Source of the DNA: an uncultured Clostridia bacterium
Lineage (GTDB): Bacteria > Bacillota > Clostridia > Christensenellales > UBA1242
Assembly (NCBI GenBank): GCA_944345365.1
Contig: CALVMJ010000001.1
Location: 3,760 to 67,759, forward strand
Reading direction: 5' to 3'
Length of the DNA: 64,000 bases
Part shown: positions 2,784-64,000 of the stretch, piece after piece
How the letters are laid out: each line of letters begins with the position of its first letter
Numbering within the stretch: position 1 is the first letter of the stretch
Notes under the pieces: generated by a model
Seen by the model: only the letters and a program-made list of their open reading frames with translations
Databases searched by the model: none
Told to the model about the DNA's origin: nothing
Position numbers and translations under genes: made by a program

Positions 2784-3410
2784 ATGGCAAAAGTTAAAGT
2801 TTATGATATGACTGCAAAAGAAGTTGGAGAATTAAATCTTTCAGACGAAATTTTCGCAGTTCCTTACAATGAACCCCTTATCCATGAAACTGTTGTTGCT
2901 TACAACGCTAATCAGAGACAGGGAACAAAAAGCACTCTTACAAGAAGTGAAGTAAGAGGTCACGCAAAAAAACCTTGGAGACAAAAGAAAACAGGTAGAG
3001 CTCGTCATGGTTCCACAAAAGGACCACAATGGACGGGTGGTGGAGTTGTTTTTGCTCCAAAGCCAAGAGATTTTTCAAAGAAGATGAACAAAACAGCTAA
3101 AAGGCTTGCTTTCCTTTCAGCTCTTAGCACAAAGATTGCAGAAGGAAAGGTTATTGTTCTTGACAAATTTGAGCTTGCAAGCGCAAAAACAAAAGAAGCA
3201 CAAGCATTTGTTAACGCTTTTAAATTTAACGGAAAAACTCTTGTAGTTAATGCCGAAAACGGAGCAGAAATTAAAAGAGCAACAGCAAATATTAAAGATT
3301 TAAGAATTGCAGAAGCAAACTTATTAAATGTTTATGAAATTGTTGCAAACAAAAATGTTGTTCTTACAAAATCTGCAATCAAATCAATAGAGGAGGCGTA
3401 CGCAGAATAA
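2784..3410 (+). CDS. rplD: 50S ribosomal protein L4
   Basis: RQGTKSTLTRSEVRG..KKPWRQKKTGRARHGS. Confidence 0.98.
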   Translation: MAKVKVYDMTAKEVGELNLSDEIFAVPYNEPLIHETVVAYNANQRQGTKSTLTRSEVRGHAKKPWRQKKTGRARHGSTKGPQWTGGGVVFAPKPRDFSKKMNKTAKRLAFLSALSTKIAEGKVIVLDKFELASAKTKEAQAFVNAFKFNGKTLVVNAENGAEIKRATANIKDLRIAEANLLNVYEIVANKNVVLTKSAIKSIEEAYAE

Positions 3411-5259: not shown

Positions 5260-5928
5260 ATGGGACAGAAAGTTAGTCCAATTGGACTTAGACTTGGCAT
5301 CAACAAGGGATGGAACGCTACTTGGTATGCAAAGAAAGCAGATTTTGCCGACAATCTTGTTGAAGACCAAAAAGTAAAGAAATTCTTAAAAAAGAAATAT
5401 TATGCTTGTGCGATCTCTAAAATTACAATCGAGAGAACAGAATCAAAACTTGTTATTGATATTTTCACAGCAAAGCCTGGAATGATTATTGGACAAAAAG
5501 GTGCTGGAATAGAAAACATCAAAAAAGAAATCATCAAAATGATCAGACCTATAAAAAACCTTATAGTAAATGTTAAAGAAATAAAGAAACCGGACTTAGA
5601 CGCTCAACTTGTTGCAGAAGGAATTGCAAGTCAACTTGAAAAGCGTGTTCAATGGAGAAGAGCTTTAAAAATGGCTATTCAAAAGGTTATGAAAGCTGGT
5701 GCAAAGGGTTGTAAGGTGCAGTTAAATGGAGTTATTGACGGGGCTAACACTCTTCATAGATCCGAGCACTATATGGAAGGATCACTTCCTCTTCACACTC
5801 TTCGTGCTGACATTGACTATGGAACAACTGCTGCTTACACAAATTATGGTAAGCTAGGCGTTAAGTGCTGGATATATAAGGGAGAAATTCTTCCAAGCAA
5901 GTCATCTGACAAAGGAGGACAAGAATAA
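5260..5928 (+). CDS. rpsC: 30S ribosomal protein S3
   Basis: [36 protein letters not shown]. Confidence 0.97.
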
Positions 5929-6368
5929 TGTTAATGCCTAAGAGAGTTAAGAGAAGAAAGGTTTTCAGAGGCAGAATGAAAGGTAAGGCTCTTAGAGGAA
6001 ATACAGTTGCTTATGGACAATTCGGAATTGTTGCGACTGAGCCTTGCTGGATTAAATCTAACCAAATCGAAGCAGCGCGTATTGCTTTAACTAGATATAT
6101 CAGAAGAGGTGGTAAAGTTTGGATTAAGATTTTCCCTGACAAACCTGTTACAAAGAAGCCTGCAGAAACCCGTATGGGATCTGGAAAAGGTAATCCAGAA
6201 TTTTGGGTTGCAGTTGTAAAGCCAGGAAGAGTGCTTTTTGAAGTAGAAGGTGTTTCTGAAGAGGCTGCAAGAGAAGCGTTTAGACTTGCTGGACACAAGC
6301 TTCCTTGCAAAACAAAATTTATAAAGAAGAAAGACGAAAAAGAAGGTGGTGTGAAAGATGAAAACTAG
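5928..6368 (+). CDS. rplP: 50S ribosomal protein L16
   Basis: [23 protein letters not shown]. Confidence 0.98.
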
Positions 6369-43989: not shown

Positions 43990-46900
43990 ATGAAATCGAA
44001 AATCAGTTCTTTTTTTGAGAAAAAGTCGGGTAAGCTTGCCTTGTCGGGGATAATTTTTGCCTTGGCTTTGGTCGTTGCGCTCACAACAGTTTTTGTGCTT
44101 AATGGCAAGAAACTGGAAAACAAAACCACCCCTCCAACAAACGCAGAAACAACCATTGTGCCAAATAACTCAGACAATTGGACAAACGCAGGGAATTATG
44201 ATACTGTGAATATCTCAACAGGCGCAGGCTTTACTGACGGAAATGGAACTGAAGCAGACCCTTACATAATTACAACTGCAAGACAACTTGCAGGGCTTTC
44301 TTACTTAGCAGGCAGAGGTGGAATAAGAGCATACAAATACTATAAACTTGGTGGGAATATCAATCTCCTGGACCACTACTGGACACCGATTGGAACAGAT
44401 AGCCCTTACTATTTCAACGGATCATTTGATGGAGATGGCTATGTTATTTCGGGAATGGTTGTTAGTGGTTCGTTTTCATATGCAGGTTTGTTTGGATATA
44501 TGAAAGGAGAAACCGGTGAAACCTTTAAAATATCAAACCTTGGAATTGAGAATAGTGAGATAAAGGTGACTTCTTCTGCCCGTGTTGGTGGCTTGGTGGG
44601 GTATTCTGCTTCTTCAATTTTAACAATCACAAACAGTTATAACACCGGTTCAGTTAGTGCGACTTCTTCTTTTTATGCCCGTGCTGGAGGCTTGGTGGGG
44701 GAGTCTTCTTCAACTTTAACAATCATAAATAGTTATAACACCGGTTCAGTTAGTGCGACTTCTTCTTCTAGTAGTGCCTGTGCTGGAGGCTTGGTGGGGG
44801 ATTCTTCTTCCTTGACGATAGAAAACAGTTATAACACCGGTTCAGTTAGTGCGACTTCTTCTTCTTTTGCCCGCGCTGGTGGCTTGGCGGGGAATTCTTC
44901 TTTTTATTTGACAATCAAAAATAGTTATAACACCGGTTCGGTTGATGCAAGTGGTTCAACAACATATAAAGGTGGACTGATTGGACAAACAAATTCAGGA
45001 GATACAAGAACAATAATCAAGAACTCCTACTTTGACGGCGATGTGTTTAGTGGAAGAATGATTGAAAATGTAGGTGCAACAATCACTGCAAGTGGGAAGG
45101 TTGCTGGGCTTTCGGGTTTGATGAAAGATACAGCAAATTATGGCTCGGAAAGTTTTGGAATATACACAGATGATAAGTCCGCAACGGGTAATGCCGTTTG
45201 GTCAAGCGAAAGCCCTTGGGACTTTGAAAATGTTTGGGGAGAAGATGTTTTTGGAACAAATAATGGATATCCAGTTTTAAGAAATGAAGAATATAACGAT
45301 TATTTTGCTGATCTCTACTGGAAATACAACGCCGCAACAAGCTATGCGGGTGGAGATGGAACGCAAAGTAGTCCATATTTAATTTCCTCAGCCCAGGAGC
45401 TTGCGCTTTTGTCAAACGATGTTAACTCTGGAAAATATTATGATCAATATATCTATGCAAAACTTACAGACAACATTGACCTTGCAGGCAAAATTTGGAC
45501 ACCTATTGGAAAATTTTTTAACAACTCTATTTATTCTTTTCATGGCTCATTTGATGGAAACGGATATGTTGTTAAAAACATGACGATAGAATTTAATGTG
45601 ATTGAAGATATGGAAGGGGTTGGAGTTTTTGGTTTTTTTGGAGACCAAATGTCCGGAGAAACTTCATATTTAAGTAATCTTGGTGTAGAAAATTATGAAA
45701 TACAAGTCAGTGACAAGGGCCAATCATTTGGTGGTATGGCTTGTATTGCCCCTTTGGTTGGGGTTGCCTCTTCCACAAATATTGCAAATTGCTATGCAAA
45801 CGGAAAGATTTTAAAAATAGAAAAAAATACAGGATTTTATATAGAATCTGGACTTATCGGTGCTGCTATGGGCTGTGAAATTAAGAATTGTTATGCAGTT
45901 AATGAATTTCTTGACGCATCTTGTTCTGCATATGGAGGAATTGTTGGAGCTGGTCCGATGGTAAATATACTAAACAGCTTTGCAGTGATTGATTTTTCTA
46001 CATTTAATTCATCATCTATGGCAGGACTTATTGGTTCTGATTTTGCAGATATGAATGGACCGGGACAAATTTCGGTTACAAACAGTTACTATGACGGAAA
46101 TCTTGGTGTTTCAAAAATGATTGCGAGTGCATCAGCTGAATCACAGGTCATAGCAACTGCAAGCGGAAAGGTTTCTGGACTTTCAGGAAAAATGAAAGAA
46201 AAGACAAACTATGGCGTGTCTAGTTTTGGAACATACACAGATGACAATTCTTTGACAGGAAATGCTGTTTGGACAAAGGCTTGGGATTTTCAAGAGACTT
46301 GGATGATTGAGCAAGGCTTTAACTTTGAATATCCAATTTTCCAAACAATGATGACTAAGATGTGGAAATATGATGATAATGTGTTGGCTATAACTGGATT
46401 TTCAAAGGGACTTGGAACAGCAGAATCTCCATATCAAATTTCCACAGCTGAGGGGCTTGCGTATCTTTCTATTCTTGCAAATCAAGGCAACACTAAGACT
46501 TATAAATATTACGAACTCACAGCCGACATCGACCTTTCTGGCAAATATTGGACACCTATTAGCAACAAACCTAATTCTTATTATTTTAGTGGATCATTCG
46601 ACGGGAATGGCTATGTGATAAATGGTATGACAATTGACATGAAGTCGTCGTCAGATGTTTGTGCAGGCTTGTTTGGTTGCATGGGAGGTGAAACCGGACA
46701 AACACTTAAAATATCAAACCTTGGAATTGAGAATAGTGAAATAAATGTAACGTCTTCTTCATCTACAGTCTTTGCTGGAGGTTTGGTGGGGCTATCTTAT
46801 TCTTCTTTAACAATAGAAAACAATTATAACATGGGCTCGATTAGAGCAACTTCTTCTTCTGCCTCTGTTTATGCTGGAGGTTTGGTGGGAGATGCTAGGA

Positions 46901-53411: not shown

Positions 53412-54503
53412 ATGGAAGAGATCGCTGTCATTTTTGGTGGAAAAAGTGTAGAGCATGACATATCTGTTATTACAGGAATTCAAACGATTAAATTTTTAAA
53501 GGAAAATTATAAATGCCTTTCAATTTACATAGATGGAAATGGAACTTGGTGGACGGGAAAAAATTTGGATAATCCAAAGATATATCAGGATTTTTTTAAA
53601 AGAGCAAAATCTTTAAAGAAAATAACTCCAATTTTTGGTGGAGGTGCTTTTAAGGTTGGTTTAAAAAGAAAAAAAGTTTATTCATGCGTAGTTTGTTGTC
53701 ATGGATTAAACGGAGAAGACGGAAGTGTTGCAGGGGTTTTGGAACTTTGCAACTTGCCTTATACCTCTTGTGGAATTTTGTCTAGTAGTGTTTGTATGGA
53801 TAAGGCTTTTACAAAGGCAATTTTAGCAAACTCTAATTTAAAAACAACTAATTATAAAGTTGTTTTTGGGTGGGAGTTAGAAAAATCATCAAATATTTTA
53901 AGTTTAATTTTAGAGGACTTAAAATTCCCACTTATTGTTAAGCCTGCAAACTTGGGTAGCAGTGTTGGTATAAGCGTTTGTAACACAAAAGAGGAGTTAA
54001 TAAAGGCGACGGAAATAGCACTACACTTTGATAGTAAAGTTTTAATAGAAGAATTCTTAAAGGGTTGCGAAGAATTCAATTGTGCTTGCTTTTCCTATAA
54101 TGATAAAGTTTTTACATCTGATGTTTGTGTTGTTAATAAGGGGGAGATTTTTTCATTTGATGACAAATATATAAAACAGTCAGATTTTTCTAATGAAGAA
54201 ATTTCAAATTGCTTAAAACAAGAAATAAAGAATGCAACGCAAGATGTTTACAAAATGTTTGAGTGTTTTGGCGTTGTAAGGGTTGATTTTTTGTGGAAAG
54301 ATGGAGAACTTTTTGTCAATGAAATAAATACTATTCCAGGGGCGCTTTCATGCTACTTATTTCCAAATAGATTTAAAGAAGTCTTGGATATTATGATTGA
54401 GCAAAGCAGAAAAAGGTTGAAAGAAAAAGAAAAAATAAGCTATTCATTTAAAAGTGATGCATTAAAACTTTTTGAAAGCAGTGTAGAAGTTTTTAAAAAA
54501 TAG
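53412..54503 (+). CDS. ddl: D-alanine--D-alanine ligase
   Basis: FGGKSVEHDIS, HG.NGEDG, VKPANLGSSVGI, NEINTIPG; K-Y retained in omega loop (FDDKY). Confidence 0.93.
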   Translation: MEEIAVIFGGKSVEHDISVITGIQTIKFLKENYKCLSIYIDGNGTWWTGKNLDNPKIYQDFFKRAKSLKKITPIFGGGAFKVGLKRKKVYSCVVCCHGLNGEDGSVAGVLELCNLPYTSCGILSSSVCMDKAFTKAILANSNLKTTNYKVVFGWELEKSSNILSLILEDLKFPLIVKPANLGSSVGISVCNTKEELIKATEIALHFDSKVLIEEFLKGCEEFNCACFSYNDKVFTSDVCVVNKGEIFSFDDKYIKQSDFSNEEISNCLKQEIKNATQDVYKMFECFGVVRVDFLWKDGELFVNEINTIPGALSCYLFPNRFKEVLDIMIEQSRKRLKEKEKISYSFKSDALKLFESSVEVFKK

Positions 54504-54584
54504 TTTGTCATGTTTTGTCTGTTTTTGTTGGGCTGGTGACTCTTTTTACAAAAAGAACTATACTGCTTAAAACAAGGAGGAAAA

Positions 54585-56039
54585 ATGTTTTTAAGGGATT
54601 TGTTTGATGATGAAAGTTGTCTTACGCAAAATCAAAAGGAAATTGAAGTTAAAGATATTTCTATTGATTTAAATTCTGCTAAAAATGGGGATCTGTTTTT
54701 TGATTTAAAAGGCGATAAAAATCTTAATTCAATTTTAAAAACAGGGGTGAGTTTTGTTATAAGGCTTGGTAAAAAAAATAAGAACGATGGGAAAAAAGTT
54801 TTTTCTTGCCCTGATGTGCGAGAGAGGTTTGCAACATATTCAAAAAAACTAAATAATTGTGTTTGTGATAAGCTTAAAATAATTGGAATAACTGGAACAA
54901 ACGGAAAAACATCGACTGCAAGATTAATTTCTGATATTTTAAAAGAGAGCGGAAAAAATGTTGGAATAATTGGGACTATGGGTGGGGAATTTTGTGACAA
55001 CCTTGTTGAAACAGGTTTTACCACACCTGATCCACATATACTTCATAAATTACTAAGGCAGATGTATTCAAGTGGCATTGAATATGTGGTTATGGAGGTT
55101 TCTGCCCATGCTATTGCTTTGAAAAAGCTTGAAGGGGTCAAATTTGAAGTTTTGTGTTTAACAAACATAACCCAAGACCACCTGGATTTTTTTGGGGATA
55201 TTGAAACTTATGCCCAGACAAAAATATCTATCTTTACCGAAAAGTTTGCAAGGCAGGCTGTTTTATGCATCGATGATGATTATGCAAGAAAGCTTACGAA
55301 TGAGATAAAAATCCCTTTTGTTACTTATGGAGTTGAAAGTCCAAGTGATGTTTTTGCCATTGATATTTTAAAGTCCTTTTCTGGTAGTGATTTTATTTGC
55401 AACTCTATGGATGAAGTTTTTAGAATCTCGACAAAGCTTGTGGGAGATTATAATGTTTTAAATTGTTTATGCGCAATAAGCGTTTGTTCTGTTTTGGGAA
55501 TAAGTCCCTCAAAAATAGTCAAAGGTGTGGAAAATTCTCAGCCAGAGCTCGGGAGGTTTAACACGATTGTGTTTAATGGAGTTAATGTTGTAATTGATTA
55601 TGCACACACTCCTGACGGCCTTGAAAAGGTTTTGCAAAATGCAAAAGAGCTTTGTGATAAAAGACTTTTGCTTTTGTTTGGTTGTGGAGGGAATCGTGAT
55701 AGAGGCAAAAGGCCTTTGATGGGAAGTATTGCCTTAATATACGCCGATAAAGTTTTTTTAACATCTGATAATCCTAGATTTGAAGATCCCATCGAAATAA
55801 TAAAAGATATTGAAAGTGGAATGTTTAAGGGTAAATATGTAGTTATTCCAGATAGGGCGTTGGCAATACAAACAGCATTAAGTTGTTGTGAAAGAGGAGA
55901 TTGTCTAATTATTGCAGGTAAAGGGGGAGAAAAATATCAAGATATAAAAGGTGTTAAAATTCCATATAATGATTTTGACGAAGTCCACAACTATTTTAGA
56001 AAAAATTTGGCTTTGGTCGGTGAAAAAAGGAAGGCTTAA
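54585..56039 (+). CDS. murE: UDP-MurNAc-tripeptide synthetase (meso-DAP type)
   Basis: GITGTNGKT, TTPD, MEVSAH, DYAHTPD, DNPR motif. Confidence 0.95.
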   Translation: MFLRDLFDDESCLTQNQKEIEVKDISIDLNSAKNGDLFFDLKGDKNLNSILKTGVSFVIRLGKKNKNDGKKVFSCPDVRERFATYSKKLNNCVCDKLKIIGITGTNGKTSTARLISDILKESGKNVGIIGTMGGEFCDNLVETGFTTPDPHILHKLLRQMYSSGIEYVVMEVSAHAIALKKLEGVKFEVLCLTNITQDHLDFFGDIETYAQTKISIFTEKFARQAVLCIDDDYARKLTNEIKIPFVTYGVESPSDVFAIDILKSFSGSDFICNSMDEVFRISTKLVGDYNVLNCLCAISVCSVLGISPSKIVKGVENSQPELGRFNTIVFNGVNVVIDYAHTPDGLEKVLQNAKELCDKRLLLLFGCGGNRDRGKRPLMGSIALIYADKVFLTSDNPRFEDPIEIIKDIESGMFKGKYVVIPDRALAIQTALSCCERGDCLIIAGKGGEKYQDIKGVKIPYNDFDEVHNYFRKNLALVGEKRKA

Positions 56040-56041
56040 AG

Positions 56042-56995
56042 ATGGAAATATTTTATGTTTTAACATTTATCTTAGCACTAATTATTGGACTTATATTAGT
56101 CTATCCAACAATTTTTTTGTGCAAAAAACTTAAAGTTTCACAAACAACACTGCATTATGTTGAAAAACATTCTTCTAAATCGGGCACACCTACAATGGGT
56201 GGGGTAATTTTTATTGTTTCAGCTATTTTGAGTTGTTTTTGGTTTTTTAGAGGAGAAGTCTTAACTGCCTGGCTTTGCCTGCTTGTTATGGTGGGTTATG
56301 GAGTGCTTGGGTTTTTAGATGATTTTATAAAAGTTAGGTTTCATCAAAACGAAGGCCTAAGACCATATCAAAAGATAATTGGACAAGTTGGTATAGCAAT
56401 AATTATGGCACTATATGTCTTCTTTAAAGTTGGGACAAGCCTTGATTTTTTTGGTGTTACAATTAATCTTGGCTGGTTTATAATACCATTTGTTATGCTG
56501 GTTTATTTAGCTACCACAAACAGCGTCAACTTAACCGATGGGCTTGACGGACTTGCCGGAGGAGTGAGTTTAGTGTTTTTGGTATTTTTCGGTATTATTT
56601 TAACTATGACTACGGGGCAGGAAAATCTTGCGCTTTGCTGTTTTTCTATGGTTGGAGGATTGCTTGCATTTTTGTCAGCAAATGCCTTTCCTGCCAAAAT
56701 TTTTATGGGCGACACAGGCTCTCTTGCTTTGGGAGGTTTTATTGCAAGCGTTTGCTGTCTTTCTGGAAAAGCTCTATTATTGCCAATTATAGGGCTTATG
56801 TTTGTTCTATCAGCTCTTTCTGACATAATTCAAGTTCTTCACTACAAAAGGACCAAAAAGAGAATTTTTTTGATGGCTCCTTTACATCATCATTTTGAAC
56901 AAAAAGGTGTGAATGAAAATCGCATTGTCGTAATATATATAGTTATGACAACTATCCTTGGAACACTATGCTTGTGCTTGGAGTTAGTCTTTTAG
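56042..56995 (+). CDS. mraY: phospho-MurNAc-pentapeptide transferase
   Basis: KSGTPTMGG, NLTDGLDGL, FMGDTGS, MAPLHHHFE. Confidence 0.96.
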   Translation: MEIFYVLTFILALIIGLILVYPTIFLCKKLKVSQTTLHYVEKHSSKSGTPTMGGVIFIVSAILSCFWFFRGEVLTAWLCLLVMVGYGVLGFLDDFIKVRFHQNEGLRPYQKIIGQVGIAIIMALYVFFKVGTSLDFFGVTINLGWFIIPFVMLVYLATTNSVNLTDGLDGLAGGVSLVFLVFFGIILTMTTGQENLALCCFSMVGGLLAFLSANAFPAKIFMGDTGSLALGGFIASVCCLSGKALLLPIIGLMFVLSALSDIIQVLHYKRTKKRIFLMAPLHHHFEQKGVNENRIVVIYIVMTTILGTLCLCLELVF

Positions 56996-57003
56996 GAGTT
57001 TTT

Positions 57004-58305
57004 ATGCGATATTTTAAAGGCAAGAGAGTGCTGGTTTACGGAATGGGAATCAGTGGACAATCTGCCTGTAAGCTTCTTCACTCTTATGATGCTTGCGTAA
57101 GTATATACGACGAAGATAAACGCTTTTCAAATCTTTTTTGTTTTGAAAACAACCCAATGGGAAAGGAATATGATTTGGTGGTTGTATCACCGGGTGTAAA
57201 AGTAATTGGAAATAAAATAATTAAACATTTTATAGACCAGAAAGTTTCGGTAATTTCCGAAATTGATCTTGGCTATTCCTTTTTAGAGGGAAAACTTGTG
57301 GCTATAACCGGAACAAACGGCAAAACTACCGTCACTAGCCTTTTGGGAGATATTTTCAAAAAGGACGGAAAAGAAACTTTTGTTTGTGGGAACATTGGGC
57401 TACCTCTTTCTGCAATTGCTTCAAGCACGACAAAAAAAAGCTTTACAGTTTGCGAGGTGAGTAATTTTCAACTGGAACTATCCAAAGTTTTTAATCCCGA
57501 CATTGCCTGCATCTTAAACTTGCAAGAAGATCACATCGATCGCCACGGAAATTTTGCTGAGTATGTTAGAGTCAAAAACAAAATCAGCCAAAATTTTTCA
57601 AAGGCAAATCTTTTGGTATATAACTTAGACGATGACAACTGTGGCCTTGTAGATTTGACTAAAAACACAAGTACTTTTTCAAAACAAGAGCAAAAAAGAG
57701 GAAGCTATGTAAAAGACGGAGAAATTTTTTTCAACAAAACAAAAATTATGCCGGTTAGCGATGTCCCTTTAATTGGAGATAAAAATTTGGAGAATGTGCT
57801 TGCTTGTGTAAATATTGCTATGCACTGCAAGGTAAAAATTAACAATTTAAAAGATGCCATAAAGGACTTTATTCCACCAGCTCACAGACTTGAATTTGTT
57901 GGAAAGTTTAATGGTGTGGAATTTTTTAACGACTCAAAATCCACAAATGTTGCGTGTGTTGAAATGGCAATTGAAAGTTTAAAAAGAAAGAATCTCATTC
58001 TTTTGCTTGGAGGACAAAACAAGGATTGCAACTTTGCACATATGTTCACAAAAGGATATGACATTAAAGAAGTGATTTGTTTTGGAAGTGCTGGGCAGTC
58101 AATTTTTATCACGGCAAAATCCCATGGATATAATGTGAAAAAATTTGACAAAATGGAAGATGCAGTGATTAATGTAATAAAAGAGGCAAAGCAAGACGAT
58201 TGTGTTTTGCTTTCACCGGGGTGTGCAAGCTTCGATGAATTTACATCTTATGTTGCAAGAGGTCAACTCTTTAAGGAAATTGTTTGTGAAAGTTTTAAAG
58301 AATAA
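57004..58305 (+). CDS. murD: UDP-MurNAc-L-Ala--D-Glu ligase
   Basis: ITGTNGKTT, EVSNFQLE, NDSKSTN, LSPGCASFD; ATG 57004. Confidence 0.95.
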   Translation: MRYFKGKRVLVYGMGISGQSACKLLHSYDACVSIYDEDKRFSNLFCFENNPMGKEYDLVVVSPGVKVIGNKIIKHFIDQKVSVISEIDLGYSFLEGKLVAITGTNGKTTVTSLLGDIFKKDGKETFVCGNIGLPLSAIASSTTKKSFTVCEVSNFQLELSKVFNPDIACILNLQEDHIDRHGNFAEYVRVKNKISQNFSKANLLVYNLDDDNCGLVDLTKNTSTFSKQEQKRGSYVKDGEIFFNKTKIMPVSDVPLIGDKNLENVLACVNIAMHCKVKINNLKDAIKDFIPPAHRLEFVGKFNGVEFFNDSKSTNVACVEMAIESLKRKNLILLLGGQNKDCNFAHMFTKGYDIKEVICFGSAGQSIFITAKSHGYNVKKFDKMEDAVINVIKEAKQDDCVLLSPGCASFDEFTSYVARGQLFKEIVCESFKE

Positions 58306-59404
58306 AAAAATCAAATTTGAAAAATCTTCTTTTATTGTTTGTTTGCTTGTAATTTTGCTTGTGGCTTTTGGTTGCATTATGGTTTACAGTGCAAGTATGT
58401 ATTCTGCTCAATACCATTTTGGAAACTCAAAGTTCTTTCTTTATAAGCAAATCTTAGGAGCAGTACTTGGGCTTGCTCTTATGATTTTTTTTGCTTTTTT
58501 TGACTATCATTCATTAAAAAAGTTTAGGTGGATTGCTTTAATCGTAACAACAATTTTACTTGTCTTGGTTTTTATCCCAGGAATAGGAGTGGAAAGTTAT
58601 GGAGCAAAAAGATGGGTGAGTATTTTAGGTTTTTCAATTCAACCATCAGAAGTTGCCAAATTTACCTTGGTTTTGTTCTGTGCAAGTTACCTTTCCGACA
58701 ATCACGAAAAAATAAAAAACTTTAAAACATTGCTCCCAGTGGTGTTCGTAGCAGGAGCTCTTTGCCTTTTAGTTATTTTAGAGCCAAGTATGAGTGTGAC
58801 GATGTGTTTGCTTTTGATAACATTTTTTATGCTTGTTGCAGGAGGAATAACAAAAAAACACACCATAATGTTTTCTATTCCAGCCGTTTTGGCTGTTCCA
58901 GCATTAATAATCGCAGAGCCTTACCGTCTAAAACGACTTTTTGCCTTCATAAATCCTTGGGCTTCTCCTCAGGGGGAAGGATTTCAACTTATCCAGTCGC
59001 TATACTCACTTGGCAATGGGGGGTGGTTTGGAGTTGGCCTTTTTGCATCCAGACAAAAATATCTGTTTTTGCCTTTTGCTGAATCTGATTTCATATTTTC
59101 TATAATAGGAGAGGAATTAGGGTTTGTGGGCGTGACAATGGTCATCTTGGCATTTTTGACGCTAATATATTTTCTCATTAAAATTGCTTTAAACGCCAAA
59201 GACAGATTTGGTGCTTTGCTTGCAAGTGGAGTCGCCTTTGTAATTGGAGTTCAAACGCTTCTAAATATAGCCGTTGTTACCGGCTCAATTCCACCAACAG
59301 GGTTGCCACTTCCGTTTATTTCAAGTGGTGGCACTTCCGTTATGATGTTTATGGCGGGGATTGGGGTGTGTTTGAATGTTGCAAGACAGAGTAAGAATCA
59401 ATAA
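58286..59404 (+). CDS. ftsW: SEDS peptidoglycan polymerase FtsW/SpoVE
   Basis: GAKRW, IQPSE.AK, FLPFAESDFIF, TG.PLPFIS.GG; GTG 58286 after AAGGA is the probable start. Confidence 0.93.
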   Translation: MKVLKNKKIKFEKSSFIVCLLVILLVAFGCIMVYSASMYSAQYHFGNSKFFLYKQILGAVLGLALMIFFAFFDYHSLKKFRWIALIVTTILLVLVFIPGIGVESYGAKRWVSILGFSIQPSEVAKFTLVLFCASYLSDNHEKIKNFKTLLPVVFVAGALCLLVILEPSMSVTMCLLLITFFMLVAGGITKKHTIMFSIPAVLAVPALIIAEPYRLKRLFAFINPWASPQGEGFQLIQSLYSLGNGGWFGVGLFASRQKYLFLPFAESDFIFSIIGEELGFVGVTMVILAFLTLIYFLIKIALNAKDRFGALLASGVAFVIGVQTLLNIAVVTGSIPPTGLPLPFISSGGTSVMMFMAGIGVCLNVARQSKNQ

Positions 59405-59418
59405 ATTTAAAATTTTTG

Positions 59419-59447
59419 TTGATTTACAATTTTTATTTTGATATACT
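59419..59447 (+). promoter_or_regulatory. sigma-A promoter of first cargo gene
   Basis: TTGATT, 17 bp, TATACT with TG extension. Confidence 0.7.
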
Positions 59448-59468
59448 TTAATTACAAAGGAGAAAATT

Positions 59469-60014
59469 ATGAGAAATTATTTTATAATACATGGGACATT
59501 CGGTCACAATAAAGAAAATTGGTTCCCTTGGCTTGAGAATAAATTAATTAAGAAAGGAGAAGTTTTTAATTTAAATTATCCCACTCCTGAAAATCAATCA
59601 TTCGAAAGTTGGTCAAAAGTTTTAGATAAATATAAAGATAAAATCACAAGCGAAACAGTATTTATTTGTCATAGTATTGGTTGTATCTTCTTGATTAAAT
59701 ATTGCATTTTTAATAAGATAAAGATAGATAAAGCTATTTTTGTTAGTGGTTGTAATAACTATTATTTTGATCCTAAATTTGATGAAATAAACAAAGATAT
59801 GTATACTGATAGAATTTCGGAATTTAAAAATTATTGTGACAATGTTATTTGTTTTTATTCAAAAGATGATCCTTATATAAAATTTAATCAACTGCAAATA
59901 TTTGCTCATTCTGTTTATGCTATACATAAAATTTATGAACATGCAGGACATTTTAATGAAAAGGCGGGCTATAAAAAGTTTGAAGATATTTTACCTTATA
60001 TTTTTAGCAAATAA
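59469..60014 (+). CDS. RBBP9/YdeN-family alpha/beta hydrolase
   Basis: IIHG.FG....NWFPWL, CHSIGC, SKDDPY, AGHFN. Confidence 0.88.
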   Translation: MRNYFIIHGTFGHNKENWFPWLENKLIKKGEVFNLNYPTPENQSFESWSKVLDKYKDKITSETVFICHSIGCIFLIKYCIFNKIKIDKAIFVSGCNNYYFDPKFDEINKDMYTDRISEFKNYCDNVICFYSKDDPYIKFNQLQIFAHSVYAIHKIYEHAGHFNEKAGYKKFEDILPYIFSK

Positions 60015-60037
60015 AAAAGTATTTAGTGCATTAACTC

Positions 60038-60175
60038 GTGGTAACGGGTAGCATCCCGCCAACAGGTCTGCCACTTCCCTTTATTTCAAGTGATGGAACT
60101 TCCGTTATGATGTTTATGGCTGGGATTGGCGTGTGTTTGAATGTGCTTTGGCAGAGTAATAAGAATAATATTTAA
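60038..60175 (+). pseudogene. orphan copy of ftsW 3' end (in frame, no start codon)
   Basis: Reads VVTGSIPPTGLPLPFISSDGTSVMMFMAGIGVCLNVLWQSNKNNI*; 35 of 36 residues match FtsW VVTG...CLNV. Confidence 0.95.
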
Positions 60176-60279
60176 TAAAAGGTAAAAGTACACAAATTGT
60201 TTTTAAATTATATGCTTTTTCTTAATTGCTGTGATATATTAAAAAGCGATGGATATTATTAATTGGCGTTGGGGGATTT

Positions 60280-60924
60280 ATGAATAAACAAATGTTGGAA
60301 ATATTAAAAAATTGCAAATGTTTTATATTTGATTTTGACGGGACTTTGATAGATTCGGAGCCTTATCATATGAAGGCTCATAACATGGTGATGTCTTCCA
60401 TTTTGAAGAAAGAAATTCATTTAAATAACATTAGTTTTCAAAAATATTTAGGAAAAAACGACGAAGAGATTTATAATCTGTTTAAGGAAGAGAATGGTGT
60501 GGATTTTGATATAAAAGATGCTGTGCTCAAAAAACAAATTGTGGCCCGAGATTTGTTGCTAGATAATAAAGTTGAGATTTTTGATTATTTTTTTGAGGTT
60601 GAAAAGTTGAAGAACAAGCAAAAAAAATTTTATATATTATCCAATCAATGCAAAATGATATTAGAAGATGTTTTAAAATCTAAAAAAATTCTTAATAAAT
60701 TTCAAAGAATATTTTGCTTGCCAGAAATGAAAATATTGAAAAAATATTTTCTTGAAAATTTTTCAAAATATATTAAAGATGCTGACTTTTGTGATGTTGT
60801 ATTATTTGAGGACTCGGCATCGACCATTGATGTCGCTCATAAGTTAGGAATGAAAACAATAGGAATTGAAACAAAAATGAATGAGGATAAAATTAAAAAT
60901 TCAGACTATTTAATAAAGATTTGA
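60280..60924 (+). CDS. HAD-superfamily phosphatase (beta-PGM-like)
   Basis: FDFDGTLIDSE motif I, LSN motif II, FEDS motif IV. Confidence 0.88.
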   Translation: MNKQMLEILKNCKCFIFDFDGTLIDSEPYHMKAHNMVMSSILKKEIHLNNISFQKYLGKNDEEIYNLFKEENGVDFDIKDAVLKKQIVARDLLLDNKVEIFDYFFEVEKLKNKQKKFYILSNQCKMILEDVLKSKKILNKFQRIFCLPEMKILKKYFLENFSKYIKDADFCDVVLFEDSASTIDVAHKLGMKTIGIETKMNEDKIKNSDYLIKI

Positions 60925-60967
60925 AATTTATTGAGAGAAATTTTACTAAATTATAGTGTAATAATTT

Positions 60968-61074
60968 GCTGTAACCGTCTCTATTGCACAAAAGTTTGTT
61001 ACTTCCATTCTTATTAAGTGGCAGAACTTCCTTTATGATGTTTATGGCTGGGATTGGCGTGTGTTTGAATGTTG
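60968..61074 (+). pseudogene. second, decayed orphan copy of ftsW 3' end
   Basis: GCTGTAACCGTCTCTATT aligns to GTTGTTACCGGCTCAATT; ~2-nt deletion; 61033-61072 identical to 60105-60144. Confidence 0.9.
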
Positions 61075-61093
61075 TTAAGGGGAAATTAGGGTA

Positions 61094-61122
61094 TTGACTC
61101 TTGTAATTTTCTGTGTTATTAT
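61094..61122 (+). promoter_or_regulatory. sigma-A promoter of HD gene
   Basis: TTGACT, 17 bp, TATTAT with TG extension; GAGGAG RBS. Confidence 0.75.
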
Positions 61123-61143
61123 AAGAATCAAGAGGAGTAAAAA

Positions 61144-61794
61144 ATGAAAGAAAAAAATGTTATTGAGTTTTATGTGCTTTGCAATAAATTAAAAGATGTT
61201 GTTAGGACAGGTTGGAAAAATTGGGGAGTTAACCGATTTAGAGTTGAAAGCATAGCAGAGCATATTTATGGGGCGCAAATGCTTGCTATTGGTATGTGGT
61301 CAGAGTTTAAATATGATATTGATATAGCGAAAGTTTTGACCATGCTTGCTGTGCACGAAGTTGAAGAAATTGTTATAGGGGACTTGACACAATGGCAAAT
61401 AACTAAAGATGAAAAATTAATTAAAGGTAAAGAAGCCGTAAGGAAGGTTTTTTCTAAATTAGGGAATGCTAAGAAATTTGAAGATTTGATTGATGAATTT
61501 AATGCAAAACAAACGAAAGAAGCTAAATTTGCCTATTTCTGCGATAAATTAGAATGTGATCTACAAAGTAAGATCTATGATGAAGAAGGTTGTGTTGATT
61601 TAAACAATCAAGAAAACAATAATTCGGCTAAGGATAAAGATGTTAAAGAAATGTTAGAAAATGGTTATTCTTTTTCTAAGATGTGGCAAACTTTTGGACT
61701 TAAAAAGTATAATTATGATGATAATTTTGCAAATGTTTCAAAATATGCTATGGGAGTTGATATTTTAAGAGAATCCAAAGATAAACAAAAATAG
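61144..61794 (+). CDS. HD-domain hydrolase (YfbR/HDDC2-like 5'-deoxynucleotidase family)
   Basis: LKD.VRTGW, ESIAEH, HE..E...GD, DKLE. Confidence 0.82.
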   Translation: MKEKNVIEFYVLCNKLKDVVRTGWKNWGVNRFRVESIAEHIYGAQMLAIGMWSEFKYDIDIAKVLTMLAVHEVEEIVIGDLTQWQITKDEKLIKGKEAVRKVFSKLGNAKKFEDLIDEFNAKQTKEAKFAYFCDKLECDLQSKIYDEEGCVDLNNQENNNSAKDKDVKEMLENGYSFSKMWQTFGLKKYNYDDNFANVSKYAMGVDILRESKDKQK

Positions 61795-61872
61795 CTTTAA
61801 GATCAATTAAGAAATGTGATCAAAGCTATGTGCTTACAATACTAAAAATTGATAGTAGAATCTAATAAATAG

Positions 61873-61909
61873 AAGGCGCTAGAAGTTAGACTTTTTAGCG
61901 CTTTTTTTT
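61873..61909 (+). terminator. intrinsic terminator
   Basis: GCGCTAGAAG / CTTTTTAGCGC stem followed by T8. Confidence 0.7.
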
Positions 61910-61974
61910 GTGTCGAGATTTTGTTTTTTTGCATAAAATGTTAAAGTAGGGATTTGTTTTTATGCGGAGGAAAA

Positions 61975-63228
61975 ATGTCTAAGTTTGTGATTAACGGGGG
62001 TAATAAATTGGTCGGAGAAATTGATATTTCTTGTGCCAAAAACTCACTTTTAACTATTCTTGCAGGGTGTATTTTGTCAGAAGGAGAAATTGTCCTTCAT
62101 AAATATCCCAGCTATACCGACACGGAATGTATGTGCAACATCTTAAAGCATCTTGGAGCAAAAATTAAAAAGGAAGGAGAGGTTTTGGTCGTTGACTCCT
62201 CCTCTTTAAATTCTTTTGACATTCCAACCGAACTTGCTTGCCTTGTTCGATCTTCTATCTTTGCCCTTGGTGCAATCATAGGAAAGTTCAAAAAGGCAAA
62301 AGTGGCTTATCCCGGTGGGTGTGAAATTGGTGCAAGACCTATTGACATTCATCTTTCTGGGCTAAGGCAACTGGGAGTTAAAATTACTGAAAGACATGGA
62401 TACATATATTGTGATGGAAAAGATATGCACAGCGCCACGATTATGCTTGATTTTCCAAGTGTAGGAGCAACCGAAAACTTAATAATGGCAAGTGTGTTGA
62501 CTAAAGGTGAAACAGTTATTTATAACTGTGCAAAAGAGCCGGAGATTGTTGATTTGCAGGAGTTTTTAAATTTGTTAGGTGCAAAAATATCCGGAGCAGG
62601 CACTGAAAAAATTGTCATAAATGGAGTGGCTAAACTTGGAGGGGGAGAATTTACTCCAATAAGAGACAGAATTGTTGCGGGAACATACATGATTGCATGT
62701 GCAATGTGTGGTGGGGATATTTCTTTAAATGGGGCTAATCCCGAGCATCTTCAAAGCGTTATAACCAAATTAAATAAAACTGCTTGTCAAATTGAAGCTA
62801 GTTGTGATAAAATTAGGGTGAAATCTGATGGAAAGCCTTTAAGCTTGAAAAAAATTGAAACTTCTGTTTATCCAGGTATTCCAACCGACCTTCAAGCACA
62901 ACTTTTGGCACTTCAATGTGTGAGCAATGGTTCATGTATGATAATCGAAAACCTTTTTGAATCGAGATTTAAGCATGTGCCTGAATTAATTAAAATGGGA
63001 GCAGACATCCATCTTAGAGATAGAGTTGCCTTTGTCAGAGGTGTTCCAAAACTATTTGGAGCAGAGGTCTTTGGAATGGATTTGAGAGGTACGGCGAGTT
63101 TGATTCTTGCAGGACTTTGTGCCGAGGGATATAGCGTTGTCAATAACGCAAGGCATATTGACAGGGGGTATAATAGGATTGAAAGAGAACTTTCTAGTTT
63201 AGGGGCAGATATAAAAAGGGTGGATTGA
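61975..63228 (+). CDS. murA: UDP-GlcNAc 1-carboxyvinyltransferase
   Basis: AKNS, PGGCEIGARPIDIH, PSVGATEN, DLRG, HIDRGY; ATG 61975 after GGAGG. Confidence 0.95.
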   Translation: MSKFVINGGNKLVGEIDISCAKNSLLTILAGCILSEGEIVLHKYPSYTDTECMCNILKHLGAKIKKEGEVLVVDSSSLNSFDIPTELACLVRSSIFALGAIIGKFKKAKVAYPGGCEIGARPIDIHLSGLRQLGVKITERHGYIYCDGKDMHSATIMLDFPSVGATENLIMASVLTKGETVIYNCAKEPEIVDLQEFLNLLGAKISGAGTEKIVINGVAKLGGGEFTPIRDRIVAGTYMIACAMCGGDISLNGANPEHLQSVITKLNKTACQIEASCDKIRVKSDGKPLSLKKIETSVYPGIPTDLQAQLLALQCVSNGSCMIIENLFESRFKHVPELIKMGADIHLRDRVAFVRGVPKLFGAEVFGMDLRGTASLILAGLCAEGYSVVNNARHIDRGYNRIERELSSLGADIKRVD

Positions 63229-64000
63229 TGAAGAAAAAGCTTATAATATCAATTTCGGCTTTGCTAGGTGTTATTACTGTTGTTTTAACGCTTTGTTTTA
63301 CTGTGTTTACAGTGAAGGAAGTTGAAATTGATTTTAGGACAAGCCTAGAACAACCCTATAATGAAGAAGAGATTATTAAAGAGGCAAATATAGATTTTGG
63401 AAAATGCTTGCTTTTTATGTCAAAAACCGGGTATATAAAGAGAATTGAAGAAAAATTCCCTTATTTAGAGGTAATAAATATTGAAACTGTTTTTCCATCA
63501 AAACTCGTTATTCATTGCGCCGAAAGGCAAGAACTTTTCGCTTTTCAAAAAGACGATCAGATGGCTTTGTTAGATAAGGATTTTAAAGTTCTTAGTGTGG
63601 AGCAAGGAAATTTTGAAAGCGATAAGGAAAATCCTATTCTAATCAAGGGCTTGACTTTTGAAGGAGAAATTTATGAAGGGAAGTTTTTGGATATAACCGA
63701 GAACGGGCTTAAAAGATTTTATTCCTCAATGCTTGAAAACAACAAAACTCTTCCACAAGTTCTTGGTTTTTGCAAGGAGCTCTTTGTTTACAGTGAGTAT
63801 AATCCGCTTACTAATAGCAATGAAACAAATATTGTTATAACGACTTTCAAAAATCGAGAAATTAAAATTTTAAATATAGATGTAAATTTAAGTCGTAAGA
63901 TGCAAAGAATGTTTCAGGTTTTACCGATGCTCTATGACCTTTTGGTAATTAATGGGGATTACACAAGTGAAGAAGTGGACAGATGTGCAATTGTGATAGG
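63228..64000 (+). CDS. FtsQ/DivIB-like cell division protein (partial, runs off window)
   Basis: MKKKLIISISALLGV.. single TM then POTRA-like FTVKEVEI..IE.KFPY.EVINIE.VFPS.L.I...ER; ATG overlaps murA TGA. Confidence 0.75.
   Translation, partial: MKKKLIISISALLGVITVVLTLCFTVFTVKEVEIDFRTSLEQPYNEEEIIKEANIDFGKCLLFMSKTGYIKRIEEKFPYLEVINIETVFPSKLVIHCAERQELFAFQKDDQMALLDKDFKVLSVEQGNFESDKENPILIKGLTFEGEIYEGKFLDITENGLKRFYSSMLENNKTLPQVLGFCKELFVYSEYNPLTNSNETNIVITTFKNREIKILNIDVNLSRKMQRMFQVLPMLYDLLVINGDYTSEEVDRCAIVI

Follow-up and report, generated by a model that had tools for sequence, protein, structure and literature searches.

Copies of the ftsW 3′ end between single-gene cassettes in gut Clostridia: candidate displaced tails in an array without an integrase

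The ftsW–murA interval and its two ftsW copies

The window (the whole 64,000-nucleotide stretch of DNA that was analyzed) belongs to a metagenome-assembled genome of 914 kb that is 98% complete and whose reads derive from chicken gut metagenomes; a genome of the same genus bears the label Ca. Caccovivens. The window contains a compact dcw cluster in the order ddl, murE, mraY, murD, ftsW, three small genes, murA, and ftsQ. The small genes encode a Ser_hydrolase, a HAD hydrolase, and an HD_3 hydrolase, and have a G+C content of 22–28% versus 35–40% in the flanks. Within the genus the ftsW–murA gap is a hotspot, extending from ~56 nt up to more than 5 kb. Public assemblies encoding the exact FtsW, MurD, Ser-hydrolase, HAD, and HD proteins have an identical arrangement, and an informative sister strain (L112) is also available. 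The features of the interval are as follows.

58286–59404 (+): ftsW, a SEDS glycosyltransferase of 372 aa with a GTG start (Pfam PF01098, E = 2e-97); the 372-aa gene is also annotated in public assemblies of the same strain
59273–59404 (+): working ftsW tail (the T segment; last 43 codons plus stop), the segment repeated downstream; between-strain divergence 3.8%, versus 1.24% for core genes
59419–59447 (+): promoter-like site of cassette 1, TTGATT-17-TATACT with TG; consensus match only, homologous to the promoter before the Ser-hydrolase cassette of genome G005
59469–60014 (+): cassette 1 cargo, Ser_hydrolase (YdeN-like), 181 aa (PF06821, E = 3e-22); 46% nucleotide divergence from a 185-aa allele at the same place in the sister strain
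60020–60046 (+): junction motif of repeat unit R1, variant TATTTAGTGCATTAACTCGTGGTAACG, with one mismatch to the clade-wide motif AAYAACTSRTGKTAASRGG
60038–60175 (+): ftsW copy 1, with a 45-codon frame that is intact; the head as far as 60104 moves with cassette 1, and the remainder (core and tail) with cassette 2
60231–60259 (+): promoter-like site of cassette 2; consensus match only
60280–60924 (+): cassette 2 cargo, HAD-family hydrolase, 214 aa (PF13419, E = 3e-13)
60950–60976 (+): junction motif of repeat unit R2, decayed (ATTATAGTGTAATAATTTGCTGTAACC)
60970–61097 (+): ftsW copy 2, frame broken by indels; ftsW similarity extends to 61074
61094–61122 (+): promoter-like site of cassette 3, TTGACT-17-TATTAT with TG; consensus match only
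61144–61794 (+): cassette 3 cargo, HD-domain (YfbR-like) hydrolase, 216 aa (PF13023, E = 5e-26)
61834–61870 (+): possible remnant of a third repeat unit, a degenerate motif plus the last ~17 nt of the ftsW tail (AGTAGAATCTAATAAAT); weak, with a shuffle p of 0.02 for the tail-end match and a non-significant motif part (p = 0.17)
61871–61906 (+): intrinsic terminator before murA, the sole terminator noted and probably the ancestral ftsW terminator
61975–63228 (+): murA, the conserved right flank of the hotspot (PF00275, E = 2e-82)

Every cassette in the window has a promoter-like site directly past the preceding tail, recognized by consensus match only. A homologue of the cassette 3 HD protein (68.5% identical) is itself a cassette in genome G090, where it is followed by the motif and an ftsW copy. 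An Rfam scan of the window region and of seven array loci returned nothing relevant. A candidate empty-site allele, represented by one read-derived contig joining 59386 to 61876, was set aside as the letters between are undetermined.

Both copies start at the same ftsW position (about 59273–59275) and lie far above chance similarity (E = 2.5e-32 and 2.1e-20 against the organism's own genome), and a search of that 914-kb genome found no ftsW-tail copy besides these two. Over 36 codons, copy 1 (60038–60145) differs from ftsW (59273–59380) at 17 of 108 nt. These differences fall in 15 codons, 14 of them changed synonymously (16 nt, including TCA to AGC for Ser) and one by replacement (GGT to GAT, G to D), which exactly reproduces the count given in the original prediction. 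Copies 1 and 2 are identical over exactly 40 nt (60105–60144 and 61033–61072), the identity ending at both edges, and within this shared block only two sites distinguish them from ftsW, 59356 (G to T) and 59365 (G to C), each a synonymous change. Copy 2 (similarity 60970–61074) has lost 2 nt at one point, contains other small indels, and carries numerous replacements, which leaves its frame broken. The shared block with its two synonymous differences had been described correctly, as had the replacements and the ~2-nt deletion of copy 2, to which the further indels are now added. The nearest species are ~31% divergent in the ftsW body, and the tails in the window are not assignable as native or foreign.

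Comparison with the sister strain divides the interval into segments of different history. Core genes of the two strains are 1.24% divergent. The Ser-hydrolase coding sequence diverges by 46% and the motif plus head of copy 1 by 27%, the core and tail of copy 1 by 2.8%, and the block from the HAD gene through copy 2 to the HD gene by only 0.31% (p = 7e-5 versus core). Divergence in the motif and first ~65 nt of copy 1 follows that of the Ser-hydrolase gene upstream, whereas divergence in its core and tail follows that of the HAD/HD block downstream. This split marks copy 1 as chimeric, its two parts meeting at ~60104, where the 40-nt block shared with copy 2 starts, and the earlier view of copy 1 as a single former allele has to be given up. 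The copy 1 head of the sister strain is close to the species' own ftsW head; that of the window is foreign-looking (GGTAGC...) and also occurs in a repeat unit of genome G124. For this strain pair the breakpoints lie at 59469 and about 60104. Three histories (core, Ser-hydrolase block, and HAD–HD block) adjoin, as evidence for recent cassette mobility inside the species.

The working tail carries five SNPs in 132 nt between the strains, against the 1.24% of core genes (p = 0.026). This weakly indicates that the working C-terminus in the window is the most recent import, as had been proposed, and hints that it may have travelled with the first cassette. It had also been suggested that decay increases with distance from ftsW and records insertion order. 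The window conforms to this (copy 1 intact, copy 2 broken, the third almost gone), but two relatives do not: in G005 the more decayed copy is the proximal one, and in G124 an intact copy is flanked by disrupted, insert-bearing copies.

Cassette arrays and their junction motif

The copies in the window are not a local oddity. In approximately 11 of 101 species of the genus, and in Onthoplasma-like relatives, ftsW is followed by one to seven single-ORF cassettes; extra ftsW tails lie 3′ of ftsW in 8 of 61 genus genomes. The cassettes are all on the ftsW strand, mostly contain a single ORF, and directly follow ftsW, with five in G124 and six to seven at loci L120 and L136. Their cargo is diverse. 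The 47 proteins include seven GNAT acetyltransferases, HD, HAD, and Ser hydrolases, a fucosidase, PnuC, a deaminase, Ham1, and a Barstar-like protein, the last being the sole immunity-type match in the set.

Each cassette end in the array genomes consists of a conserved ~27-nt motif, unrelated to ftsW, fused to an ftsW tail. The motif, about TTTATAATACAATAACT(GA/CG)TGTTAA(G/C)(A/G), precedes every extra tail and adjoins the ftsW homology at the codons for T-G-S-I-P-P. The pattern AAYAACTSRTGKTAASRGG is present in 11 of 101 genus genomes, essentially in arrays only, versus a single match for the reversed control pattern; motif-like matches outside arrays (G013, contig C8; G010, contig C31) lie inside genes and were rejected as chance matches. 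A longer motif pattern identified 23 loci among 185,579 species genomes, with labels that are nearly all Clostridia, Ca. Onthoplasma, or Ca. Caccovivens. Scanning 2.9 million viral contigs gave no match, and a metagenome scan gave five short contigs only.

The motif is conserved over positions −27 to −3 in the 52 units profiled, which come from several genera; its conservation shows no codon periodicity, and the fusion is always at the same ftsW position. Its variation consists mostly of two haplotypes and their recombinants, with a fine mosaic at positions −10, −9, −2, and −1. A position profile reveals neither a counterpart of the motif nor a motif-like left half-site in ftsW itself. The consensus of motif plus tail head has no stable fold (−2.9 kcal/mol, versus −2.8 ± 1.6 for shuffled sequences).

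Coding history of the copies and replacement of working tails

The tail copies bear the signature of a protein-coding sequence. Codon periodicity begins at position 0 in the 52 units, exactly as in 24 real ftsW genes. Twelve units of different genomes encode an identical 33-aa peptide despite differing at 13–28 of 108 nt. Among 53 units, 28 retain an intact FtsW-like frame, and these have a pS of 0.65 and a pN/pS of 0.235, compared with 0.68 and 0.232 for 58 real ftsW tails; synonymous sites of the intact copies are near saturation. The match in pN/pS, together with the codon periodicity, implies that the tail parts evolved as FtsW C-termini. These comparisons support the view that the copies probably served as working FtsW C-termini for almost their entire history, whether in this lineage or in a different one, and the description of the copies as former functional alleles is to that extent upheld by the dN/dS analysis it called for.

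The same signature could be produced if the copies were expressed as ~43-aa membrane peptides (the last FtsW helix) kept under their own selection, with the motif supplying a TATAAT-like −10 box and an ATG or GTG. About 88% of units do have such a start codon, located at −9 to −7 and preceded closely by an in-frame stop, and copy 1 is one of the 28 intact frames, an ORF of 45 codons. However, no Shine–Dalgarno sequence accompanies these starts, and the remaining 25 of the 53 units are broken by stops, indels, or inserts, including families with a ~100-nt insert that are still spreading between cassettes and species. The equality of pN/pS with that of real tails is moreover explained by displaced working ends without any expression. 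Maintenance as peptides is considered very unlikely.

Whether insertion affects the working gene can be read from the ftsW body and tail separately. An ftsW-body tree was built and the tail types were mapped onto it. The genus tail is type A (..PFISSGGTSV.. FMAGIG.CLNV), and that of the Onthoplasma-like outgroup is type B (..PFISAGSTSLLVFMSAIGVVLNV). Of the 12 array-bearing genomes within the type-A clade, seven have a working tail that is chimeric or of type B, compared with none of 47 array-less genomes (Fisher p = 2.3e-6), and the seven represent approximately five independent events. Chimeric working tails are found in G090 and G071. G101 has a type-B working tail whose nearest relative is an Onthoplasma-like ftsW (11 of 99 nt differing), and its displaced copy is type A and native: it differs at 11 of 108 nt from the working tail of the sister species G007, with an identical peptide. 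The breakpoint in the G101 working gene is placed only to between about −30 and 0, because sister species are already ~40% divergent at third codon positions. These data support the conclusion that insertion swaps the FtsW C-terminus and parks the previous one downstream, with G101 as direct confirmation. The proposed C-terminus swap is thus supported, and the predicted incongruence of body and tail is found across the clade.

The same results bear on the simplest origin for the copies, a local tandem duplication, through slippage or unequal crossing-over, of the 3′ end of the resident ftsW, followed by decay in place and involving no import. The G022 copy, only 5 of 99 nt from that genome's own ftsW tail, would suit this, as would the copy 1 head of the sister strain with its likeness to the species' own. 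However, the copies are separated by unrelated cargo of lower G+C content, they share a non-ftsW motif across genera, and the 16:1 excess of synonymous differences in copy 1 is not expected of neutral decay. The type-B tails in type-A hosts and the displaced native tail of G101 contradict a nesting of the copies as simple local duplicates, and refute simple local duplication for the clade; as an account of the copies in general it is regarded as extremely improbable.

Recombination mechanism and comparison with known systems

The favored interpretation, to which a probability of about 0.55 is attached, is that the ftsW copies are displaced tails in an integrase-less array on the ftsW 3′ end, assembled by essentially homologous recombination. 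Three parts would make up the incoming DNA: a segment resembling the tail, an ORF with its own promoter, and a repeat unit in which the junction motif is joined to an ftsW tail. This DNA would recombine within the final ~130 nt of ftsW, which are highly conserved. The working gene would retain its own body and acquire a whole or partial new tail, while the previous tail would be pushed behind the cargo gene, where it would be free to decay. The tail repeat would in effect be a portable homology arm. A linear tail–ORF–motif–tail fragment could enter a naive ftsW via two crossovers inside one conserved segment, most likely in the 20–38-nt near-invariant tail head, and a crossover there would account for the predominance of tails that are entirely A or entirely B. 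Later exchange between repeats would generate chimeric copies and single-cassette swaps. For the enzyme and entry route we infer mainly RecA-type recombination between tail repeats and, probably, transformation; a competence protein of the ComEC type is encoded in the genome (PF03772, E = 1e-54).

Direct observation covers the array and its recurrence, the coding signature carried by the copies, the replacement of tails in relatives, and the variability of breakpoints. Among cassettes common to different arrays, some breakpoints coincide with the tail end or with the end of T, and others lie near +30 or near −10. No homologue of a tyrosine or serine recombinase was detected in 105 ftsW-downstream or array loci (648 kb), and PF00589 matches in 16 genomes are all on other contigs or far off. 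Variable breakpoints and the lack of a nearby recombinase favor homologous recombination. Against this, homologous recombination alone leaves unexplained how unrelated ORFs came to lie between repeat units, and why a near-invariant, non-coding motif of ~27 nt occupies the same junction across genera. The displaced copies in G101, G022, and G071 are native-looking from the first few bases, which would need a crossover ~10–20 nt from the edge of homology and likewise counts against it.

These difficulties would be met by a site-specific, integron-like system, in which circles (tail, promoter, ORF, and motif) are exchanged by a trans-encoded recombinase where motif and tail meet (from about −17 to 0, counted from the GGN-TCN codons), with the equivalent place in ftsW or with any repeat unit; homologous exchange between repeats would later blur the boundaries. 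The aperiodic conservation of the motif with its constant fusion position, its two-haplotype mosaic, and the regular array anatomy of single ORFs in one orientation throughout are all consistent with such a system. So are the native-like first bases of displaced copies and a sharp boundary inside the motif in a cassette common to loci L105 and L122. The sole candidate enzyme is a single XerS-like tyrosine recombinase, encoded in G000 at C2:120804–121838. Array-bearing G101, which is 100% complete, has this enzyme only (168 bits on NF003462, below the 267-bit cut-off) and no serine recombinase. The left half of the motif (TAATACAATA) occurs three times in the genome. The only one of these copies that is intergenic is part of a palindromic element, ACAATATATTGT, immediately before the xerS-like gene; arms similar to the left half precede that gene in G000, G022, and G101, with a second arm that has no match. 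For streptococci, genetic linkage of difSL to xerS has been described (PMC2731167), and the binding of XerS is much stronger at one arm than at the other (PMC2965235).

Several observations speak against site-specific exchange. Breakpoints are not fixed, chimeric working tails occur, nothing resembling the left half-site of the motif is present in ftsW, the motif does not form a stable hairpin, and no circular form was seen. Variation within the motif also fits a young, hitch-hiking junction. The Xer similarity came to light post hoc, and several array genomes (G015 and G124) show it unclearly or not at all upstream of xer. The possible Xer link is a post-hoc lead rather than a result. A dif-like 28-mer on contig C16 that resembles the right arm of the motif was dropped, being present in only 4 of 101 genus genomes and thus not conserved. 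On balance, a site-specific system is possible but doubtful.

In its most far-reaching form, the locus would be a true gene-capture platform, independent of integrons, in small-genome gut Clostridia of the Ca. Caccovivens/Onthoplasma group. The motif plus portable ftsW tail would be the site. Insertion and excision of single-ORF cassettes at the 3′ end of this essential gene would fall to a recombinase from another locus, in the simplest case the sole XerS-like chromosome-dimer resolvase, and selection for a working FtsW would act as a check on every insertion. This extended proposal is speculative and is held to be unlikely, slightly more so than site-specific exchange as such.

If displacement of tails is the correct reading, foreign genes have an essential cell-wall gene as their landing pad across a large group of uncultured gut bacteria whose genomes are ~1 Mb in size, and the last 33–43 residues of FtsW are swapped between genera as a by-product. 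Each displaced tail would be a datable sample of the ftsW of a donor or former host, a rare natural record of horizontal transfer, and the incongruence of body and tail lets the claim be tested genome by genome. It is interesting to speculate whether such arrays depend on a dedicated or borrowed recombinase, or whether a portable homology arm is sufficient to produce integron-like arrays.

A full-text literature search for ftsW with cassettes or integrons returned nothing relevant, and no known family fits, given that the arrays show no IntI, attC fold, toxin–immunity cargo, master element, or complete Xer sites. The closest parallel in logic is provided by Rhs, CdiA, and T6SS effector loci, where incoming DNA recombines near the 3′ end of a resident gene and supplies a new C-terminus, old 3′ fragments and cargo accumulate downstream, and homologous or homology-facilitated recombination is invoked without a dedicated recombinase (Jackson et al. 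2009, PMC2935791; Kirchberger et al. 2017, PMC5361080). The ftsW 3′ end is likewise replaced and the old end retained downstream, as seen in G101 and in the 7/12 versus 0/47 distribution of tails. However, the Rhs/CDI/T6SS loci exchange a variable toxin C-terminus along with immunity cargo, whereas in the ftsW arrays the C-terminus is conserved and functionally neutral, the gene encodes an essential housekeeping enzyme, and the cargo consists of unrelated small enzymes. A conserved non-coding motif at every junction is a further difference.

In their anatomy, the arrays are similar to integrons and CALINs, comprising co-oriented, ORF-sized cassettes with a repeated site between them and one anchor, and a cargo rich in GNAT acetyltransferases and small enzymes. 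Unlike integrons, they have no intI or tyrosine recombinase homologue in the 105 loci surveyed, the cassettes appear to carry their own promoters (by consensus match only), and in place of a folded attC the repeat is a 130–200-nt gene-end copy plus the 27-nt motif, which lacks a stable fold.

Stacking at a gene 3′ end is known for SCC at rlmH (orfX) in staphylococci and for ICE/CIME accretion at fda in Streptococcus thermophilus, where the gene is regenerated, units stack, and some lack a recombinase. As in those elements, direct repeats of the target gene 3′ end flank each unit of the ftsW arrays. The SCC and CIME repeats, however, are about 15–30 bp and are associated with recombinase-bearing master elements (ccr, int), in contrast to a 43-codon repeat and single-gene units at ftsW, and no master element with a cognate recombinase was found in the 648 kb around ftsW and the arrays.

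Small modules without a recombinase of their own are also represented by the dif modules of Acinetobacter plasmids and by IMEX, which are thought to be moved by the host chromosome-dimer recombinase (PMC6449649, PMC7399989). The dif modules have complete 28-bp XerC/XerD sites in alternating orientation, and IMEX lie at dif; in the ftsW arrays only one arm is similar to a candidate Xer site and the anchor is ftsW. The minimal mobile elements of Neisseria, said to have been described by Saunders and Snyder in 2002, reportedly hold variable cargo between conserved genes and are exchanged by transformation and homologous recombination without a mobility gene. Unlike the ftsW arrays, they involve no gene-end duplication and form no arrays. 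The anatomy of the ftsW system recalls integrons/CALINs and SCC/CIME, and its recombinase-less aspect recalls dif modules; its logic would be that of C-terminal displacement, extended from toxin loci to housekeeping genes.

Insertions within the repeat-unit tail copies

In one sub-family of the repeat units, each a junction motif of about 27 nt fused to a copy of the ftsW tail, the ftsW-like segment is interrupted by an insert of approximately 100 nt. The insert begins with CGTCAAAAC and contains an internal hairpin (CCCCGCAAAT...ATTTGCGGGG). It is found at the following loci downstream of ftsW or within cassette arrays.

Units carrying the approximately 100-nt insert
L065 (genome G015), 1094-1359 and 2093-2359: two units
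L057 (genome G020), 1707-1975: one unit
L103 (genome G124), at 3281, 4135, 6007, and 6893: four units
L117, L125, and L126: further loci with such units

Different species have the insert in common, and its start varies slightly between units (+20, +26, and +31). A search of Rfam returned no match for it. The insert could represent a small element, mobile or structured, with the tail copies as its target. A second, distinct insert, GTTTACGCAAGAAAACAGCAGTTTTC, is present in both tail copies of L084 (G076; 2692-2878 and 5909-6033), where the insertion site is identical, between the TS and FM codons.

Unit placement and strain divergence

A repeat unit of L118, from a 'Catabacter' MAG, lies approximately 90 nt 3' of ftsW (2774-2896) with no intervening ORF, and is an 'empty' cassette position. 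In G020, two repeat units with cassettes (L098/L135, 6443-7202) are located on a contig without ftsW, C12, the ftsW of this genome being on C43; either arrays occupy a second site in this genome, or the assembly is broken here.

The block of the window comprising the HAD gene, the frame-broken tail copy 2, and the HD gene (60176-61794) diverges by 0.31% in one strain pair, compared with 1.24% in core genes, which suggests that it was recently transferred or swept within the species.

Other features of the genome and the dcw cluster

Two features lie outside the window in the same genome. A palindromic element, GAAAACACAATATATTGTATTAAAAT (C2:120700-120745), is positioned between serS and the XerS-like gene (C2:120804-121838), the only tyrosine recombinase gene of this genome, and lies upstream of the latter. 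Related sequences occur at the equivalent place in G022, G030, G101, and G007, and the palindrome is a candidate dif-like site. The gene at C14:410-2545 codes for a ComEC-type competence protein (PF03772, E 1e-54); the metallo-beta-lactamase HxHxDH motif is not recognizable in this protein.

Within the window, a tandem repeat at 44570-44943 (96-nt period, 3.9 copies, 83% matches) probably corresponds to a 32-residue repeat within a protein-coding gene. The dcw cluster (53412-63998) is non-canonical: mraZ, rsmH, ftsL, and PBP genes were not seen in it, and murA, immediately 3' of ftsW, holds the slot usually occupied by murG/murB.
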